A stretch of DNA of 40,953 nt from Nanobdellota archaeon (lineage in GTDB: Archaea; Nanobdellota; Nanobdellia; Woesearchaeales; GW2011-AR9), in assembly GCA_038044525.1 (NCBI GenBank), contig JBBSZV010000001.1, positions 1 to 40,953 on the forward strand, read 5' to 3'. Below are positions 3,200-40,953 of this stretch, in pieces. The position numbers were made by a program, and so were the translations under genes. The notes under the pieces are model-generated. The model did no database searches. It saw only the letters and a list, made by a program, of their open reading frames with translations, and was not told where the DNA came from. The first letter of the stretch is position 1; every line of letters begins with the position of its first letter.

Positions 3200-3967
3200 A
3201 TGGGAACCGAACATAAAATCATCCACGGGGACTGTTTGGAAGAATTACAAAAATTGCCGGACGAATCGGTAGATTTAATTTTTGCTGATCCACCGTATGG
3301 ATTAGCAAAAAAGAAAGGATTGGGCTGGAAGTATAGCAAACATGTAACTCTTCAAGAAACATGGGATATATTTGGTAAAGATGAATTTTTTGAATTTAAT
3401 CTTAAATGGATTGCTGAATGTTGGCGTGTCTTGAAACATGGGGGGAGTTTTTGGGTTTGTGGTTCTTTTCATAATATTTACCAATTAGGATTCATTTTAC
3501 AGCATATGGATGCTAAAATTAATAATAGTATTGTATGGTTTAAGCCTAATGCTCAACCGAACATAACTTGCCGAATGTTTACTGAAAGTTGTGAACATCT
3601 TATTTGGGCAGTTAAAAATAACTCTAAAACGAAGTGGACTTTTAATTATGAAGATACCAAACATAAAATAGATGATGAACTCAATCCAAAAGGAAAACAA
3701 ACGAGGAATGTATGGAACATTCCCCTAACCTCTAAAAGGGAAAAATGGGCGGGAGAACATCCAACTCAGAAACCAATAGAACTATTAAGACGTGTTATTT
3801 TGTCATCTAGTAAAGAAGGAGATTTAGTTTTGGATCCGTTTGTTGGTTCAGGTACAACTTCTGCCGTAGCTAAATCTTTAGGTAGAAATTCTATAGGAAT
3901 CGATAAAGACAAAAAATATTTGGAAATTGCCAAGAAGAGGTTAGCTCAGAATACTCTTAATCCGTAG
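3200..3967 (+). CDS. DNA methyltransferase, beta-class N6A/N4C family (N6_N4_Mtase); the DPPY motif favours m6A
   Basis: Motif IV FADPPYG lies near the N-terminus, followed by HPTQKP and then motif I LDPFVGSGTT near the C-terminus. Confidence 0.9.
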   Translation: MGTEHKIIHGDCLEELQKLPDESVDLIFADPPYGLAKKKGLGWKYSKHVTLQETWDIFGKDEFFEFNLKWIAECWRVLKHGGSFWVCGSFHNIYQLGFILQHMDAKINNSIVWFKPNAQPNITCRMFTESCEHLIWAVKNNSKTKWTFNYEDTKHKIDDELNPKGKQTRNVWNIPLTSKREKWAGEHPTQKPIELLRRVILSSSKEGDLVLDPFVGSGTTSAVAKSLGRNSIGIDKDKKYLEIAKKRLAQNTLNP

Positions 3968-4484
3968 GCTGTGGTAGTCCTAAAAAACTTAGAGGTAATT
4001 CTCCGAAAAAGTAGAAACAACCAACAGACTGAATATAATTTAAAGTATCTCTGTAGGACTTATTATTGAACCAATCATTAATGACATAACAATATTCCAC
4101 TTTTATGCCCGTTCCGTCTAAAAGCTTTTGGTATTGTTTTTTCTTAAAATCACAAGTTTGTAGCTTTTCATCCACACTTCCAGCTACTCCCTGAAACTTC
4201 ATCTCAATAATGAATAATGTATTATTTGCCAAAACAAAGACCGTTTCGTCAGGCAATAACTGTTTTGAAATCTTTTCCTTCCAATCAATATTATGCTTTG
4301 GTAAAAACCCCTTATAGAGATCATGCTTTTTAAATAATTGAGCTACTTTCTTGCCTTTAAAAAGCAAGTCGTTGTCATCGGTGGAATAACCATTCATCTT
4401 CTCAAAAACAGAACGCAAATCTACTCTACTTTCAAATTTAAGTCCAGATTGGGTTTTTGCCCCACCTTTTCCGCCCCTTATCAT
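3957..4484 (-). CDS. Putative type II restriction endonuclease, PD-(D/E)XK fold
   Basis: 175-aa ORF convergent with the methylase and overlapping it by 11 nt. It carries LPDETVFVLANNTLFIIEMKFQ (PD...ExK). The specific family was not recognised. Confidence 0.55.
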   Translation of the reverse strand: MIRGGKGGAKTQSGLKFESRVDLRSVFEKMNGYSTDDNDLLFKGKKVAQLFKKHDLYKGFLPKHNIDWKEKISKQLLPDETVFVLANNTLFIIEMKFQGVAGSVDEKLQTCDFKKKQYQKLLDGTGIKVEYCYVINDWFNNKSYRDTLNYIQSVGCFYFFGELPLSFLGLPQPTD

Positions 4485-33696: not shown

Positions 33697-34602
33697 ATGA
33701 ACTATATATTCACCAACATCCTTGGAACCTTCGTTCTAGATGAAAATATGGCGGCCGTAGATTCTCTGCTGTTCGAATCCATTGAAGAGTACAAAATAAA
33801 AGAAAAATCAGAAGCGAAATTGCAAAAAAAGCATAATGCCCAGCCTTTGCCGAAAGAAAAACTTCTCCAGACATTACTATTATTCAAAGATGCAAAATAT
33901 TATCAGGAATTTTATCAAAATAATCTGGAATTGACCAAGGAAGGCTTGAAAAATGCGGTCAATGAAGACAACCTCATCATGCAGGCTATCGCTAACATCA
34001 ACGAGCTGGATAAGATTTCCAACACCATGGCTAAACGTCTCAGGGAATGGTACAGCTTGTACTATCCGGAATTGTCCGAACGGATAGAAAACCACGAGAA
34101 ATACATTGAATTAGTCTTAGGACAAGAACGGGATCAGAAAACTTTCGGCGCGGATCTTAAAACCTTTGATATCGAAGAGATGAGATTATTAGCCGAAAGG
34201 ATCGCTTCATTATACGAACTGCGGAAAAAACATGAATTATACCTGCAGAAAATCATGAAAATATATTGCCCTAACTTATTGGAATTGGCCGGAACGACCA
34301 TCGCCGCCAGATTGATTGAATTGGGGAAAGGATTGAAGCATCTTGCTCTGCTGCCGGCATCTACAGTCCAGCTTCTCGGCGCAGAAAAAGCATTGTTCCG
34401 GCATATCAAGACCGGCAGCAAGAGCCCGAAATATGGAGTGATAATCAATCATCCATTCGTCCAGAACGCCAAAGGGAACGAAAAAGGAAAAGCTGCGCGC
34501 AGGCTGGCAGACAAATTATCTCTCTGCGCGCGATTGGATTATTTCAAAGGCGAATTCAAAGCGCTGGAATATAAAAAAGAACTAGAGGAAAAATTACTAT
34601 GA
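33697..34602 (+). CDS. nop5: Nop5 (Nop56/58) C/D box sRNP core protein, short form
   Basis: ATG 33697 (the track start at 33616 is GTG). NOSIC/Nop motifs KRLREWYSLYYPELS, AARLIELGKGLKHLALLPASTVQLLGAEKALFRH and PKYGVIINHPFV. Confidence 0.88.
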   Translation: MNYIFTNILGTFVLDENMAAVDSLLFESIEEYKIKEKSEAKLQKKHNAQPLPKEKLLQTLLLFKDAKYYQEFYQNNLELTKEGLKNAVNEDNLIMQAIANINELDKISNTMAKRLREWYSLYYPELSERIENHEKYIELVLGQERDQKTFGADLKTFDIEEMRLLAERIASLYELRKKHELYLQKIMKIYCPNLLELAGTTIAARLIELGKGLKHLALLPASTVQLLGAEKALFRHIKTGSKSPKYGVIINHPFVQNAKGNEKGKAARRLADKLSLCARLDYFKGEFKALEYKKELEEKLL

Positions 34603-34955
34603 AAGAATTCCAGGAACTGCATTCCATCGCCGTAGAAGACCGCAAATATTCAGAATGGTCGCAGCAAAGAACATTGGATGAAAAAGCGCAGATGCTCCAG
34701 CAGGAAGTGAACGAAATGATAGATGCGGTAAAAAATCAGGATATGCAGAATTTACAGGAAGAGTTGGGCGACATTATCTGGGATGCTTTGACTATTACCG
34801 CTTTGGCTGAAGAGAAAGGATTGTTCACCACTGATGAAACCCTGCGCAAAGCTGCAGATAAGATAAGAATGCGCAAACCTTGGATTTTTACTGGGGAAAA
34901 ATTAACCGCAGAGCAGGAATCAGAACATTGGAAAAGAGCTAAAGAAAAAAAATGA
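34599..34955 (+). CDS. MazG-like nucleoside triphosphate pyrophosphohydrolase domain protein
   Basis: LQQEVNEMIDAVKNQDMQNLQEELGDIIWDALTI (ExxE...EELGD pattern). ATGA overlaps with nop5 and with fibrillarin. Confidence 0.65.
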   Translation: MKEFQELHSIAVEDRKYSEWSQQRTLDEKAQMLQQEVNEMIDAVKNQDMQNLQEELGDIIWDALTITALAEEKGLFTTDETLRKAADKIRMRKPWIFTGEKLTAEQESEHWKRAKEKK

Positions 34956-36720: not shown

Positions 36721-36975
36721 CTATTGGTCATCAGTTTTATCTTCATCTTTTTTCACATGAATAATATTCACCGGACAGACATCTGCCGCTTCCTGGTTGC
36801 TTTCTGCATCTTCTTTGGAATCGATCTCTAATTCGTAATGATCGTCAACTTCAACAGAATCCTTCAGATGCGCCAGGCCTTGCTCGTCCATCTTCCAGAA
36901 TTCAGGATTGACGGCAGCGCAGGCGCCGCAGCTGATGCAGTCTTTCTTGAAATGGATTATTTTGTATTTGGCCAT
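36721..36975 (-). CDS. Small ferredoxin (single Fe-S cluster type)
   Basis: CISCGACAAVNPEFW ... CPVNIIHV (CxxCxxC...CP). Confidence 0.75.
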   Translation of the reverse strand: MAKYKIIHFKKDCISCGACAAVNPEFWKMDEQGLAHLKDSVEVDDHYELEIDSKEDAESNQEAADVCPVNIIHVKKDEDKTDDQ

Positions 36976-37082
36976 GTTTTATGTTGGAATAAGAGCTATT
37001 TATAATATTTTCTGGGGGAAATCTGCCGGGAGTAGTTTAAAAAGAGTCATATTTTACCGGGATTCCCGGCATTTTAGGAGCA

Positions 37083-37090
37083 TTTATAAA
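37083..37090 (+). promoter_or_regulatory. TATA-like box TTTATAAA
   Basis: About 25 nt upstream of ATG 37112. Confidence 0.4.
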
Positions 37091-37111
37091 TCAGACTTAA
37101 TTTTAGGTTAT

Positions 37112-38080
37112 ATGAAAGTATTTTTACCAAATAGCGTTTGGATTGGAAATATAGACCTATTTTTAAAAAATATTGATAACACGAATGAAGAAATTTTAGA
37201 GATAAGTTCTCATGAAAACTGGGTTTCTGTTCACCCGGTAGTTTTGTGTATGGTCACGGCCTTGGGCTTAAAAATGAGGGGAAAAAACAAAAAAATAAGT
37301 TTCGAAATAATGCAAGCAACTTCAAAGCATTACTTTGAACGTATGGGTTTATTTCGATTTTTAAACTTGGACTCTGAAATGAAAATTAACGAACACGAGC
37401 CAGCAGGGAGATTTATTCCGATTCAATTAATAAAAAATTCAGAACAATTAGACAAATTCATAACAGATATGATACCGTTGCTTCATTTTGATCAAGAAAA
37501 AGTAGAACCTATACGCTATATAATCAGTGAATTGGTTAGAAATGTATTCGAACATGCTGGTTCTACAGAAGGGGCTATAGTTTGTGCTCAATATTACAAA
37601 AAAAGTAATACTATTAGAATTGGCGTAGCAGATGCAGGAGTTGGAATTAAAAATACTTTAGATAGGCTTTATAATCCAAAGGACGACATTGAAGCCTTAT
37701 CGCTTGCACTTACGCCAGGAATAACTGGAACAACAAAAAAAGTTGGCGGAAGTGCAACCAACGCTGGTGCAGGACTTTTTTTTATTAAATCCTTAGCAAA
37801 AGTTAATAGGGATTTTTTTATGATATACAGCGGAAAAGGCATGTATAAATTACTTAAAAATCCAAAAAATAAAGAAGTCAAACTTGTTGCAGACCCATTA
37901 AAAGATCATTGCTCATACGGGGGAAATTACCCTTATTGGACTGGAACAGTTGTAGGTATAGATTTATGTTTAGATGAGCATGCAAATTTTTCAGAACTAC
38001 TGGATTTGATTAGACAATTTTATAGAAAAGAAAGAAAAAGTAAAAACAAAGAAAAATATAAAAAACCGAGATTTATATGA
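37112..38080 (+). CDS. GHKL-superfamily ATPase (RsbW/SpoIIAB-like HATPase_c) with an unassigned ~130-aa N-terminal region
   Basis: ATG 37112; the track start at 36908 overlaps the ferredoxin. N-box ISELVRNVFEHAGS, G1 GVADAGVGI and G2 NAGAGLFFIKSLA. Confidence 0.7.
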   Translation: MKVFLPNSVWIGNIDLFLKNIDNTNEEILEISSHENWVSVHPVVLCMVTALGLKMRGKNKKISFEIMQATSKHYFERMGLFRFLNLDSEMKINEHEPAGRFIPIQLIKNSEQLDKFITDMIPLLHFDQEKVEPIRYIISELVRNVFEHAGSTEGAIVCAQYYKKSNTIRIGVADAGVGIKNTLDRLYNPKDDIEALSLALTPGITGTTKKVGGSATNAGAGLFFIKSLAKVNRDFFMIYSGKGMYKLLKNPKNKEVKLVADPLKDHCSYGGNYPYWTGTVVGIDLCLDEHANFSELLDLIRQFYRKERKSKNKEKYKKPRFI

Positions 38081-38364
38081 AACTAATAAAAATTTATGAA
38101 AAAACTGGAAGTTTTGCGGAGAATAAGGACATAGCACGCGATATAAGAGTAAAAGAGATTTTACCTTGTTTAGATGAAAATGAGGTTCTTTTAGATTTTG
38201 AAAAAGTTGAATCGGCTACCCAATCATTTATTCATGCTCTTATTAGTGACATAATTAGAAAAAAAGGAATCAATATTTTAGACAGATTATATTTTAAGAA
38301 CTGTAATGATACCGTCAAAAAAATAATTAGCATCGTTACTGAATACATGCAACAACAGGATTAG
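38077..38364 (+). CDS. STAS-like small protein (DUF4325-like)
   Basis: 95 aa with an ATGA overlap with the ATPase. EVLLDFEKVESATQSFIHALISDII matches the v.lDF.gV...sSF signature I associate with DUF4325. Confidence 0.55.
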   Translation: MKLIKIYEKTGSFAENKDIARDIRVKEILPCLDENEVLLDFEKVESATQSFIHALISDIIRKKGINILDRLYFKNCNDTVKKIISIVTEYMQQQD

Positions 38365-38410
38365 ATTAACCACCAAAAACCTTAAATACATTCTTTATTT
38401 AATAAAGCGC

Positions 38411-39364
38411 ATGAAAAAGAGTGTGTTGAAAGTATTGTTAATTCTGCTGACCGCATCATTCCTGCTGCTGGTCTCCTGCAAACCCCAGGGAGCTGGAGAA
38501 ACTCCGCGGGATACCGCGGCCATCCTCCAGCAGGTTAAGACCGGAATGCAGGGAGTGGAAATACAGCTTATCCAGGATTCCCCGCCCTCTCTTATCTACG
38601 ACCAGAATGAACTTATCGCTTTAGTGGAAGTCAAGAATAAAGGCAATTACGATTTGCGGGCGCAGGATTGCTTTGTGCAGATTACCGGGTTTGATCAAAA
38701 CATTATTTCCGGCGGCTTTTCCAGTCCGCGTTCCTGCGCTGAAAGCGTAGGCGTTTTAGAAGGAAAAAATGTTTATAACGTGGAAGGAAGCACTAACTTA
38801 TTAGAATTTGAATCCAGCCTTAACCTCCCTTATAACGTCCCTGATTATAGCCCTACTTTGAATTATCTTACTTGTTACAATTATCATACCTCTGCCAATC
38901 CTTCTGTCTGTGTTGATCCCTTGTTTTACCATGTATCTTCTGAACAGAAAACCTGCCGACCGAAAGACCTGCCCCTGGGCGGCGGTCAGGGCGGACCGGT
39001 CGGGATAAGTTACGTTGCGGCAGACATGGTCGGCGGCAAGGCCATCTTTGAGATAAATGTGCAGAATTTGGGAACTGGAAAAGTGTTGAGCCCTTATGCC
39101 AACATCCAGAATTGCGGGCAAGCGTCCTTGGAATACAAAGATTTGGATAAACTTTCTTACAATGTAGAACTTACCGGCGGAGGGAAAATCAACTGCAAGC
39201 CTAACGACGGATTTGTGCGCTTAGTGAACAACCAGGGAAAAATAATCTGCAGTTTCAGCATCCCCGGAGCGACGCCGTTTGAAACCTTATTGCTGGTAGA
39301 TCTGGATTACGGATATATGCAATCCCAGCAGAAAGCGGTCAAGATAGTAAGGACGCCCCAGTAA
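38411..39364 (+). CDS. Exported lipobox protein, two-domain CARDB-like family
   Basis: Signal MKKSVLKVLLILLTASFLLLVSC; motifs VEVKNKGNYDL, GGPVGISYV, QNLGTGKV and LDYGYM. Confidence 0.6.
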   Translation: MKKSVLKVLLILLTASFLLLVSCKPQGAGETPRDTAAILQQVKTGMQGVEIQLIQDSPPSLIYDQNELIALVEVKNKGNYDLRAQDCFVQITGFDQNIISGGFSSPRSCAESVGVLEGKNVYNVEGSTNLLEFESSLNLPYNVPDYSPTLNYLTCYNYHTSANPSVCVDPLFYHVSSEQKTCRPKDLPLGGGQGGPVGISYVAADMVGGKAIFEINVQNLGTGKVLSPYANIQNCGQASLEYKDLDKLSYNVELTGGGKINCKPNDGFVRLVNNQGKIICSFSIPGATPFETLLLVDLDYGYMQSQQKAVKIVRTPQ

Positions 39365-39420
39365 AATTTAAATATCCTTCTTGATTAATGTTAGTAATAG
39401 CATCTAAAAGAGGTCTTCAA

Positions 39421-40314
39421 ATGAGAAAATTCATTATTCCGGTGTTTATTATGGCTTTATTATTTCTTACTGCCTGCCAGCAACAGCAGCAGCAGACCGC
39501 CAAGGGAGCATTCATCGGCGGAACGCAGGGGGTAGTCCCTCAATTTGAGGCTTTTGGAGTGGAAGAAGAAGGGATGTACGCTATTTTTGATGAGGAATCC
39601 TTCCCTTTGGAAGTTACTCTCCGCAACAAAGGAGAATATGCTGTCCAACCTAATGAAGTGTCAGTTAAGCTGCTGGGCCCTTCACAAAATGAATTTTCCG
39701 GTATCGCTTTGTGGGAATTAAAAAATACTTTGGCTTTAGATTCCATATCTGAATTAGTTCCTGCCGGCGGGGAAGAAACCTTGACCTTCGGAAGCGAAGC
39801 AAAATATACGCAAAAAGTTACCGGCATCGTAGATCGGGAATGGTTCGCTAACGTTGAATACCGTTACCAGACCTATTTGATCGTTCCGGAAGTATGTCTG
39901 AAAGAAGACCTTACCGACCAGCGGGTATGTAATGTCAAAGAAGCAAAAACTTATTTTGTCTCGGGAGCGCCGATTACCGTTAGAAGCGTGGAAGAAGATA
40001 CTGCCGGTAAAGGCATTGTTGCCCTGAAAATCGTGGTAAGCAATGCTGGAACCGGAAAAGTTACTAAAGCAGGAGAAGAATTTGGTGTGCGGAACGTCCT
40101 TTCATATAGCACCGAGGATTCTGCTTGGGAATGCAAATCCGGCGGTAAAGTCAACGAAGCCCGCTTGGATGAAGCCGGACAGGCAGAAATAGTCTGCAAG
40201 CTGAAAGAAGCCTTGCCTGAAGGGCATATCTCTACGAAACAGGTGCAGTTGACGCTTGATTACAAGTACCGGGATTTAATCCAAGAGAAGTTAAGGATAA
40301 AGCAAAGCAGTTAA
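39421..40314 (+). CDS. Exported lipobox protein, two-domain CARDB-like family
   Basis: ATG 39421 gives the signal MRKFIIPVFIMALLFLTAC, followed by a Q-run (an ATG at 39388 is an alternative). Motifs VTLRNKGEYAV, GAPITVRSV, SNAGTGKV and LDYKYR. Confidence 0.6.
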   Translation: MRKFIIPVFIMALLFLTACQQQQQQTAKGAFIGGTQGVVPQFEAFGVEEEGMYAIFDEESFPLEVTLRNKGEYAVQPNEVSVKLLGPSQNEFSGIALWELKNTLALDSISELVPAGGEETLTFGSEAKYTQKVTGIVDREWFANVEYRYQTYLIVPEVCLKEDLTDQRVCNVKEAKTYFVSGAPITVRSVEEDTAGKGIVALKIVVSNAGTGKVTKAGEEFGVRNVLSYSTEDSAWECKSGGKVNEARLDEAGQAEIVCKLKEALPEGHISTKQVQLTLDYKYRDLIQEKLRIKQSS

Positions 40315-40366: not shown

Positions 40367-40774
40367 TCAAAACAACAATCCGCCCAAGTCCAGATGCGGC
40401 TTCGTTTCAGCCATTTCGCGCAAGGCTTTATCCAGATCAGTAACTAAAGAAATTCTCCTATGCTCAATCGGCTGGCCTAATTTCAAAGCTCTCTCGATGC
40501 CGTATTGCATCCCTCTGCTGATGCCAAAATCTTCATAGACCGCGCGCAGGTCAAACTTGTCGCCCAAGGTCTGTCCGGCAGCGATCCCTAAAGCTCTTTC
40601 TTCTGCGACAGCATCATTTAAGACCCCTGCTTGGGTGAAAAATAAGTGCGAGGCATAAGGAGCTTCGCCTCTTAGCAAAGAATCCCGGACGCAGATCCGC
40701 GCATACAGAACATTGCGGCGTGTCGCTTCCCAATTATCTCCTTTGAAAGGGCTTTCAATGTAGGCTAATTTCAT
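40367..40774 (-). CDS. Hypothetical protein, possibly nucleoside 2-deoxyribosyltransferase-like fold (DUF4406-like; tentative)
   Basis: ATG 40774 (the track start at 40795 is TTG). The MKLAYIESPFKGD...APYASHLFF...GMQYGIERA pattern was recalled from memory only. Confidence 0.35.
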   Translation of the reverse strand: MKLAYIESPFKGDNWEATRRNVLYARICVRDSLLRGEAPYASHLFFTQAGVLNDAVAEERALGIAAGQTLGDKFDLRAVYEDFGISRGMQYGIERALKLGQPIEHRRISLVTDLDKALREMAETKPHLDLGGLLF

Positions 40775-40953
40775 TAAATTCGATGATAAATACAAATTTA
40801 AAAAGATTTAGAGCTTTGAAAATAGAGTATTTACTGCTCATTTCCGATTAATATTTGACCCTATAACTCTCTGGTCTTTCCACCATCGTAGCCAAATCAG
40901 TGAAACTCCCAATCGCAGCAGAGCTGCGGGGCTTCCGCCTAAAAGTTTGACAA

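Follow-up and report, generated by a model that had tools for sequence, protein, structure and literature searches.

A GHKL kinase paired with a STAS-domain substrate forms the core of two systems described by Chambers et al. (EMBO J 2026, PMC13373217). In the first, CapK, with helix-turn-helix (HTH), STAS and GHKL domains, and CapS, a STAS protein ending in a winged HTH (wHTH), regulate downstream immune operons by acting on palindromes, and CapS represses its own promoter. In the second, VapK (STAS-GHKL), VapS (STAS with a C-terminal tail) and VapC (PIN) make up a toxin-antitoxin and anti-phage system triggered by DNA damage: VapS inhibits VapC, for which its residues 94-116 are needed, and VapKSC protects against a phage. 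Single-stranded DNA (ssDNA) is the activating signal, directly for CapK and by inference for VapK. The kinase targets a conserved STAS serine, S54 in CapS, where modification by CapK was shown, and S48 in VapS, where it is supported by mutants and modelling. Their description is confined to bacteria, and in each case an output is attached, namely an immune operon for the one and the VapC toxin for the other; that publication makes no mention of archaea or of a pair lacking an effector. Genes of the DUF4325 family were also found coupled to PIN.4 VapC-like nuclease genes (Matelska et al., NAR 2017, PMC5499597). The present work concerns two overlapping genes, hereafter K and S, located in the window, i.e. 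the whole 40,953-nucleotide stretch of DNA analysed (contig JBBSZV010000001.1 of a Nanobdellota archaeon); the pair is an effector-less, cross-domain variant of the CapK/CapS and VapK/VapS kind.

With a probability estimated at about 0.6, K and S belong to a horizontally acquired, self-contained cassette, composed of a promoter with a palindromic operator followed by the two genes, and would function as a kinase-substrate switch resembling VapK/VapS, without a dedicated effector. The host genome (0.55 Mb, or 555 kb; 69% completeness) is archaeal and carries Nop56/58, fibrillarin and an archaeal-type L3.

Acquisition and boundaries of the cassette

The pair was horizontally acquired, since its site is empty in two sister genomes, a K homologue is present in only 3 of the 41 related genomes and its GC content is low. 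In the two sister genomes, G010 and G002, the DNA of the flanks is 93% and 82-90% identical, respectively, to that of the window; the flanks join across the same point and the pair is absent, the ferredoxin promoter ATTTATAATAGTTTTC running directly into CCACCAAAAACC. The inserted DNA consists of a control region of ca. 100 bp, followed by K and S, and ends 5 bp past the S stop codon, and these boundaries exclude a linked effector. As read from the junctions, the insertion point lies between the divergent promoters of a ferredoxin gene (Pfam Fer4_15) and of a lipoprotein-like gene, neither of which was disturbed, the ferredoxin promoter region ATTTATAATA (ca. 36998-37007) being intact in both filled and empty sites. 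Nothing convincing in the way of terminal repeats or target duplication was found at the insert ends. The filled-site/empty-site pair provides exact cloning boundaries.

Concerning base composition, the K and S pair has a GC content of 31.4% vs. 44.1% for the rest of the window, and the 1,357-bp insert (GC 0.318) ranks second lowest among 396 tiles of 1,360 bp (mean 0.437, standard deviation 0.034). Both the AT-richness of the pair relative to its flanks and the acquisition deduced from it by the sequence-only reading, a first examination of the letters made before any search, were thus borne out. In the two other K-carrying relatives, the K alleles are 58-59% identical to that of the window, S and the operator are present, and no flanking DNA is shared with the window; these alleles are independent acquisitions.

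Related loci, operator and spread across domains

Homologues of K were collected by a word-indexed search, which returned 2,641 sequences at E ≤ 1e-3 (the best being 60-77% identical over the full length), and by an exhaustive hidden Markov model search, which yielded 3,949 representatives (clustered at 50%), of which 118 reached E ≤ 1e-30. From contigs of one genome per species, 34 related loci were assembled, 35 with the window. S directly follows K in 34/34 of these loci, and identity to the proteins of the window is 53-73% for K and 52-73% for S. The archaeal hosts belong to Woesearchaeota, Nanoarchaeota, Aenigmatarchaeota, Thermoplasmatota and bins labelled Methanosarcinales, and the bacterial ones to Patescibacteria (the candidate phyla radiation, CPR), Gracilibacteria, Margulisbacteria, Elusimicrobiota and bins labelled Gammaproteobacteria.

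Repeated transfer of the cassette between archaea and bacteria is read from the phylogeny of its kinase. In the maximum-likelihood tree of K, the archaea/bacteria label needs five changes, at least two of which are forced by well-supported branches, and the window K groups (100/100) with two Woesearchaeota sequences, this group being sister (97/92) to a sequence from Patescibacteria.

No third conserved gene emerged from an all-against-all clustering of the 432 open reading frames (ORFs) of the 35 loci. The two nearest ORFs on each side of the pair in the 34 related loci, 115 in all, were tallied with Pfam and PADLOC. Most are housekeeping genes (tRNA synthetases, gyrase B, EF-Tu, CDC48), while defence and mobility functions are limited to one type I restriction-modification locus, one AbiE pair, two integrases, and single mad5 and PDC-S01 hits; an association with conflict or defence islands, as first envisaged, is not shown by them. 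Neither a sigma factor nor another output gene was found at the window locus or in any of the 34 others, in keeping with the initial remark that no sigma factor or output gene accompanies the pair, and no PIN family is among the families listed for the 115 neighbours.

In one Woesearchaeota contig (L001:2243-7420), a 1,725-aa CDC48 AAA ATPase is encoded one small ORF downstream of the cassette, its sequence split by intein(s) that bear LAGLIDADG homing-endonuclease domains. This ORF, which has a relative in L026, was considered as a helicase or effector and rejected, being an intein-bearing CDC48.

Upstream of K, the exact core CCGGGA[A/T]TCCCGG was found in 28 of the 35 loci, usually as TACCGGGAWTCCCGGTA, and several other loci have symmetric palindrome variants, e.g. 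CCGGCATTGCCGG and CCAGGATTCCTGG. Flanking half-sites are common, with equivalent upstream half-sites in most related loci. Archaeal loci have the palindrome near position -55 and, about 25-30 nt ahead of the near-leaderless ATG, a TTTATAAA TATA box; in bacterial loci, the palindrome is preceded by a TTGACA -35 box and followed by a -10 box overlapping CCCGGTAWAAT. The operator is kept in both domains of life, and the core promoter follows the host type. With one mismatch allowed, the palindrome of the window is a single copy in the 555-kb genome, so that no wider regulon sharing this operator is involved here.

Since K and S are the sole companions of the site in hosts from two domains, the most economical reading, by exclusion, is that K and/or S recognise the operator. 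Comparison of operator variants with K and S residues in the six variant loci singled out only K D15N, present in two of them.

The same palindrome could be taken for a mobility or recombination signal, i.e. a hairpin site used in trans, with K acting on DNA as a GHKL ATPase and not as a protein kinase. The symmetry-preserving variants also fit a hairpin, the cassette has no recombinase, which leaves its means of transfer unexplained, and K has a basic tail. The palindrome is, however, locked to promoter elements: in bacteria it occupies the spacer between the -35 and -10 boxes and extends into the latter, and in archaea it stands just upstream of the TATA box, with half-sites covering the start. 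The insert begins 44 bp upstream of it, and the best structural matches of K are anti-sigma kinases, not MutL, MORC or topoisomerase. We consider this explanation very improbable.

Alternatively, the pair could be a transcriptional controller of the CapKS type, governing the adjacent gene, here the downstream lipoprotein gene. The cassette has the same orientation as that gene and ends 46 bp upstream of it, and CapKS does regulate downstream operons through palindromes. Yet the genes downstream of the cassette, mostly housekeeping ones, and their orientation differ in every locus; the lipoprotein-like gene, present in 15/15 genomes of the same genus, keeps its own promoter in the empty sites; no second operator copy exists anywhere in the genome; and S is devoid of a wHTH, as K is of an HTH. 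The chances of this explanation are accordingly slim.

Relatives on mobile elements were searched in INPHARED and PLSDB, where only distant pairs or fusions (21-34% identity) were found, and a scan of IMG/VR revealed no member of the close clade. Marinitoga phage MPV1 (L042:2486-5629) has a distant, effector-less K and S pair two genes upstream of a serine recombinase, and in a Streptococcus prophage (L043:2357-3546) another lies between an integrase-family gene, immediately upstream, and paratox. A position near the integrase is the usual spot for accessory and exclusion genes in phages. As for plasmids, a distant pair was found in Alicyclobacillus and a fusion in Nostoc, the latter on the conjugative plasmid pANSO36B (L046:1914-3158), where it is annotated only as 'DUF4325 domain-containing protein'.

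The pair also displays the genetic hallmarks of type II toxin-antitoxin systems, namely a compact two-gene operon, a control site of its own and a patchy, horizontally transferred distribution. K and S might be a purely selfish addiction element, a post-segregational killing pair spreading without benefit to its host. Overlapping, self-promoted and predicted to be autoregulated, dispersed patchily in housekeeping contexts and with distant kin on plasmids and temperate phages, the genes would suit this role. It is nevertheless unlikely, as no mobility gene or terminal repeats were found and the related VapKSC protects against a phage.

The K and S proteins compared with known systems

Both ORFs reported by the sequence-only reading, of 322 and 95 aa, exist, and the K stop and S start share an ATGA overlap, through which S is translationally coupled to K. 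The ATG at 37112 is likely to be the K start, giving a near-leaderless transcript, because it is located ca. 25 nt downstream of the centre of the TATA box; a longer, TTG-started frame (36908) overlaps the opposite-strand ferredoxin gene and lies partly outside the insert.

As judged from sequence and modelled structure, K is a SpoIIAB/RsbW-type GHKL kinase with an intact anti-sigma-type kinase site, in agreement with the initial assignment. It matches Pfam HATPase_c_2 (E 4e-7; 30.5 bits vs. a cut-off of 27.4 bits; residues 123-229), and its boxes ELVRNVFEHA (residues 140-149), DAGVGI (174-179) and GAGLFF (219-224) fall on columns that are invariant in the 34 homologues (E140, N144, H148, D174, G176, G178, G219 and G221). 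The best folds for its AlphaFold2 model (mean predicted local distance difference test score, pLDDT, 82) are SpoIIAB 1tid and 1l0o (E 6e-4), followed by UsfX and RsbW. The protein is basic, with a median isoelectric point (pI) of 9.5, reaching 10.3 in the tail (residues 291-322), whereas S has a median pI of 5.4.

The N-terminal region of K, which had first been left unassigned, is most probably a STAS domain, like that of VapK and CapK. This assignment follows from its topology, from the Pfam STAS match (E 1.5e-5) at the N-terminus of the MPV1 phage homologue, which is 30% identical to K over K residues 5-245, and from a STAS-like motif, DF..(v)sF.dP (DF...SFVDP), found family-wide, with a proline replacing the phosphoserine in distant members. 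A profile-profile comparison (hhalign) of this domain with S gave no signal. Within the clade, W37 is invariant; the family-wide aromatic residue aligns two residues later, in a shorter loop.

For its part, S is a STAS-fold protein that, according to its alignment and model, has a conserved Thr/Ser at the canonical phosphorylation site. It matches Pfam DUF4325 (E 7e-12), as had been proposed at the outset, and its AlphaFold2 model (pLDDT 94) retrieves mostly STAS folds, i.e. SLC26-family transporters, RsbS and stressosome proteins, the best with template-modelling scores of 0.58-0.60 and weak E-values, none at E ≤ 0.001. Its best sequence match in the PDB is Escherichia VapS (9z7o_A; profile E 9.6e-4). 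The protein ends with the last STAS helix and thus contains the STAS domain only. Residues T48, Q49 and S50 are invariant in 32 sequences, and helix alpha2 starts at residue 49 in the model. Natural fusions of HATPase and DUF4325 domains, found in four distant representatives (P0248, P0259, P0262 and P0267; 397-424 aa), one of which has the same ATQSFIHAL motif as S, support a direct functional link between K and S, as far as sequences can indicate it.

These matches raise the question of an ordinary housekeeping regulator, in which K and S would control a transcription factor by partner switching, like SpoIIAB/SpoIIAA or RsbW/RsbV. The closest structures are indeed those of such proteins (1tid, 1l0o and 6m37 for K; RsbS, 6jhk, at rank 3 for S), and K has their N-box (E..N...H) and G1 and G2 boxes. 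K differs by its additional N-terminal STAS domain and basic C-terminal tail, however, and neither a sigma factor nor a PP2C phosphatase accompanies the cassette; the genome, 69% complete, gave no match to SpoIIE or PP2C_2. Moreover, the host is an archaeon, the pair is mobile and absent from 38/41 relatives, including sister genomes that are 96% similar, and its transfer across domains rules out a sigma-type target. This explanation is given almost no weight.

Compared with CapKS, the cassette shares a STAS-GHKL kinase with a STAS substrate and palindromic sites in the promoter region. It differs in that K lacks the N-terminal HTH of CapK, its STAS-like domain beginning at residue 1, in that S lacks the wHTH of CapS, and in that the cassette is followed by a genus-conserved lipoprotein gene in the window and not by an immune operon. 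The likeness to VapKSC lies in the architecture: K has the STAS and GHKL domains of VapK without HTH, S is a small single-STAS protein with VapS as its best solved sequence relative and with a conserved Ser/Thr-containing site at the N-terminus of alpha2, and the gene order is K, then S. On the other hand, the sequence similarity is remote (profile E of about 1e-3 for S), a VapC/PIN gene is missing, both from within the insert boundaries and from 34/34 loci, S is devoid of the inhibitory C-terminal extension (VapS 94-116), and the cassette, found in both archaea and bacteria, carries a palindromic operator that is strongly conserved. As for the DUF4325-PIN.4 pairs, S shares their Pfam family, but its partner is a kinase only. 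The early statement that the pairing is not a named system is outdated: VapK/VapS and CapK/CapS, its relatives, have been named since 2026 (PMC13373217), whereas the cassette stands apart by the absence of their effector and HTH domains.

The proximity of S to VapS, the inhibitor of VapC, also suggests a sensor acting in trans, in which S would hold an unlinked host protein inactive, e.g. a PIN/VapC-type nuclease, until K releases it under stress. The coupling of DUF4325 genes to PIN.4 VapC-like genes (PMC5499597) would accord with this, as would the one PIN-domain ORF encoded elsewhere in the genome, on contig 25. It is improbable all the same: after recent acquisition and movement between domains, the unlinked partner would need to pre-exist in every host, no PIN gene is present within the loci examined, and at 95 aa S lacks the very extension by which VapS inhibits VapC.

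K and S also match the PADLOC model of DrmA (PDLC02567; 1,750 positions), at positions 41-253 (E 4e-21) and 312-389 (E 1.6e-4), respectively. DISARM DrmA was rejected as an identity for the pair: only positions 41-389 of 1,750 are matched, split over two small proteins, and there is no helicase. The seed proteins of this model probably carry an N-terminal, K-S-like fused module, because of which K-S cassettes on their own might be wrongly annotated as parts of DISARM.

Proposed mechanism and other features of the window

In the effector-less switch favoured here, K would phosphorylate S at T48 or S50, and K and/or S would recognise the operator, repressing the promoter that drives them. Homology with CapK and VapK suggests that ssDNA or another single-stranded nucleic acid, arising from DNA damage or virus replication, may be the signal that activates K. 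Since the cassette brings no effector gene along and archaea and bacteria cannot have a sigma-type target in common, the output would lie with K or S itself.

Two more specific forms of this output were considered. Tentatively, the basic K, once freed from the acidic S, could be the growth-arresting part of a toxin-antitoxin-like or abortive-infection-like module, S being a decoy or an antitoxin. More doubtful still is the idea that the K-S complex is a sequence-specific DNA-binding repressor without a classical fold and that K, activated by nucleic acid, is an effector phosphorylating a target conserved in bacteria and archaea, the operator, K and S together being a complete, host-independent conflict or addiction device. 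If true, this would explain how one nearly unchanged cassette works across two domains.

Several observations weigh against the effector-less switch and its extensions. VapS S48 aligns to Q49 of S, which is flanked by T48 and S50, and not to a Ser or Thr. The aromatic residue sensing ssDNA (W68 in CapK, F54 in VapK) could not be mapped on K, where the loop containing W37 exceeds that of distant relatives by ca. 3 residues. No DNA-binding domain is recognisable in K or S, no HTH family being matched in Pfam, and defence genes are not enriched among the 115 immediate neighbours. The very strong conservation of K and S, which are 53-74% identical across domains, is unusual for fast-evolving conflict genes, and the toxicity of K is pure inference.

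Although it consists of nothing but the sensor-kinase and STAS parts, the cassette is subject to strong purifying selection, and it crossed the boundary between archaea and bacteria several times with its core promoter swapped and its operator kept. Should it prove to have its own function, it would rank among the smallest known modules sensing stress or viruses, and a rare domain-portable regulatory circuit, attractive as an orthogonal switch. Its output would then go beyond the published model, with either the kinase as a toxin or the STAS-kinase complex as a DNA-binding repressor. The features of the locus are collected in Table 1.

Table 1. Positions in the window of the K-S cassette, its parts and its flanking genes.
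Feature	Position	Strand	Description
Whole inserted cassette	37013..38369	.	1,357 bp; blastn and junction reading vs. L040 (G010) and L041 (G002)
Upstream operator half-site CCGGGA	37026..37031	.	ca. 31 bp before the full palindrome; read from sequence
Operator palindrome CCGGGATTCCCGG	37057..37069	.	core of consensus TACCGGGAWTCCCGGTA; predicted operator
Candidate operator sequence			17-bp operator duplex, TACCGGGAATCCCGGTA
Archaeal TATA box TTTATAAA	37083..37090	+	centred ca. 25 nt upstream of the K start codon
K gene	37112..38080	+	322 aa from ATG; STAS-GHKL Ser/Thr-kinase-type protein
K domains			N-domain, residues 1-108 (alpha/beta); GHKL, ca. 109-290; helix and basic tail, 291-322, with conserved RFI end
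S gene	38077..38364	+	95 aa; acidic single-STAS (DUF4325) protein
Codons T48-Q49-S50 of S	38218..38226	+	candidate phospho-acceptor site, N-terminus of helix alpha2
Left flank, 4Fe-4S ferredoxin gene	36721..36975	-	Pfam Fer4_15; junction comparison
Right flank, conserved lipoprotein-like gene	38411..39364	+	not part of the cassette

Elsewhere in the window, a 118-aa MazG-type pyrophosphohydrolase gene (34599-34955) is located between the genes for Nop56/58 and fibrillarin, the stops and starts of adjacent genes overlapping. G010 has this gene, whereas the alignment with G002 (L041) passes directly from 34597 to 34953, a precise presence/absence difference. The lipoprotein-like gene of the right flank has a paralogue at 39388-40314; both are conserved genus-wide and have no Pfam family. 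Further on, a 142-aa ORF (40367-40795, minus strand) matches DUF7768 (E 2.5e-25).

Finally, a second low-GC islet (GC of about 0.33-0.34) extends from 3200 to 4484. It comprises an N6/N4 DNA methylase gene (3200-3967, plus strand; Pfam N6_N4_Mtase, E 9e-60) and, convergent with it, a small ORF for a PD-(D/E)XK nuclease (3957-4484, minus strand), which together are probably an acquired type II restriction-modification pair.

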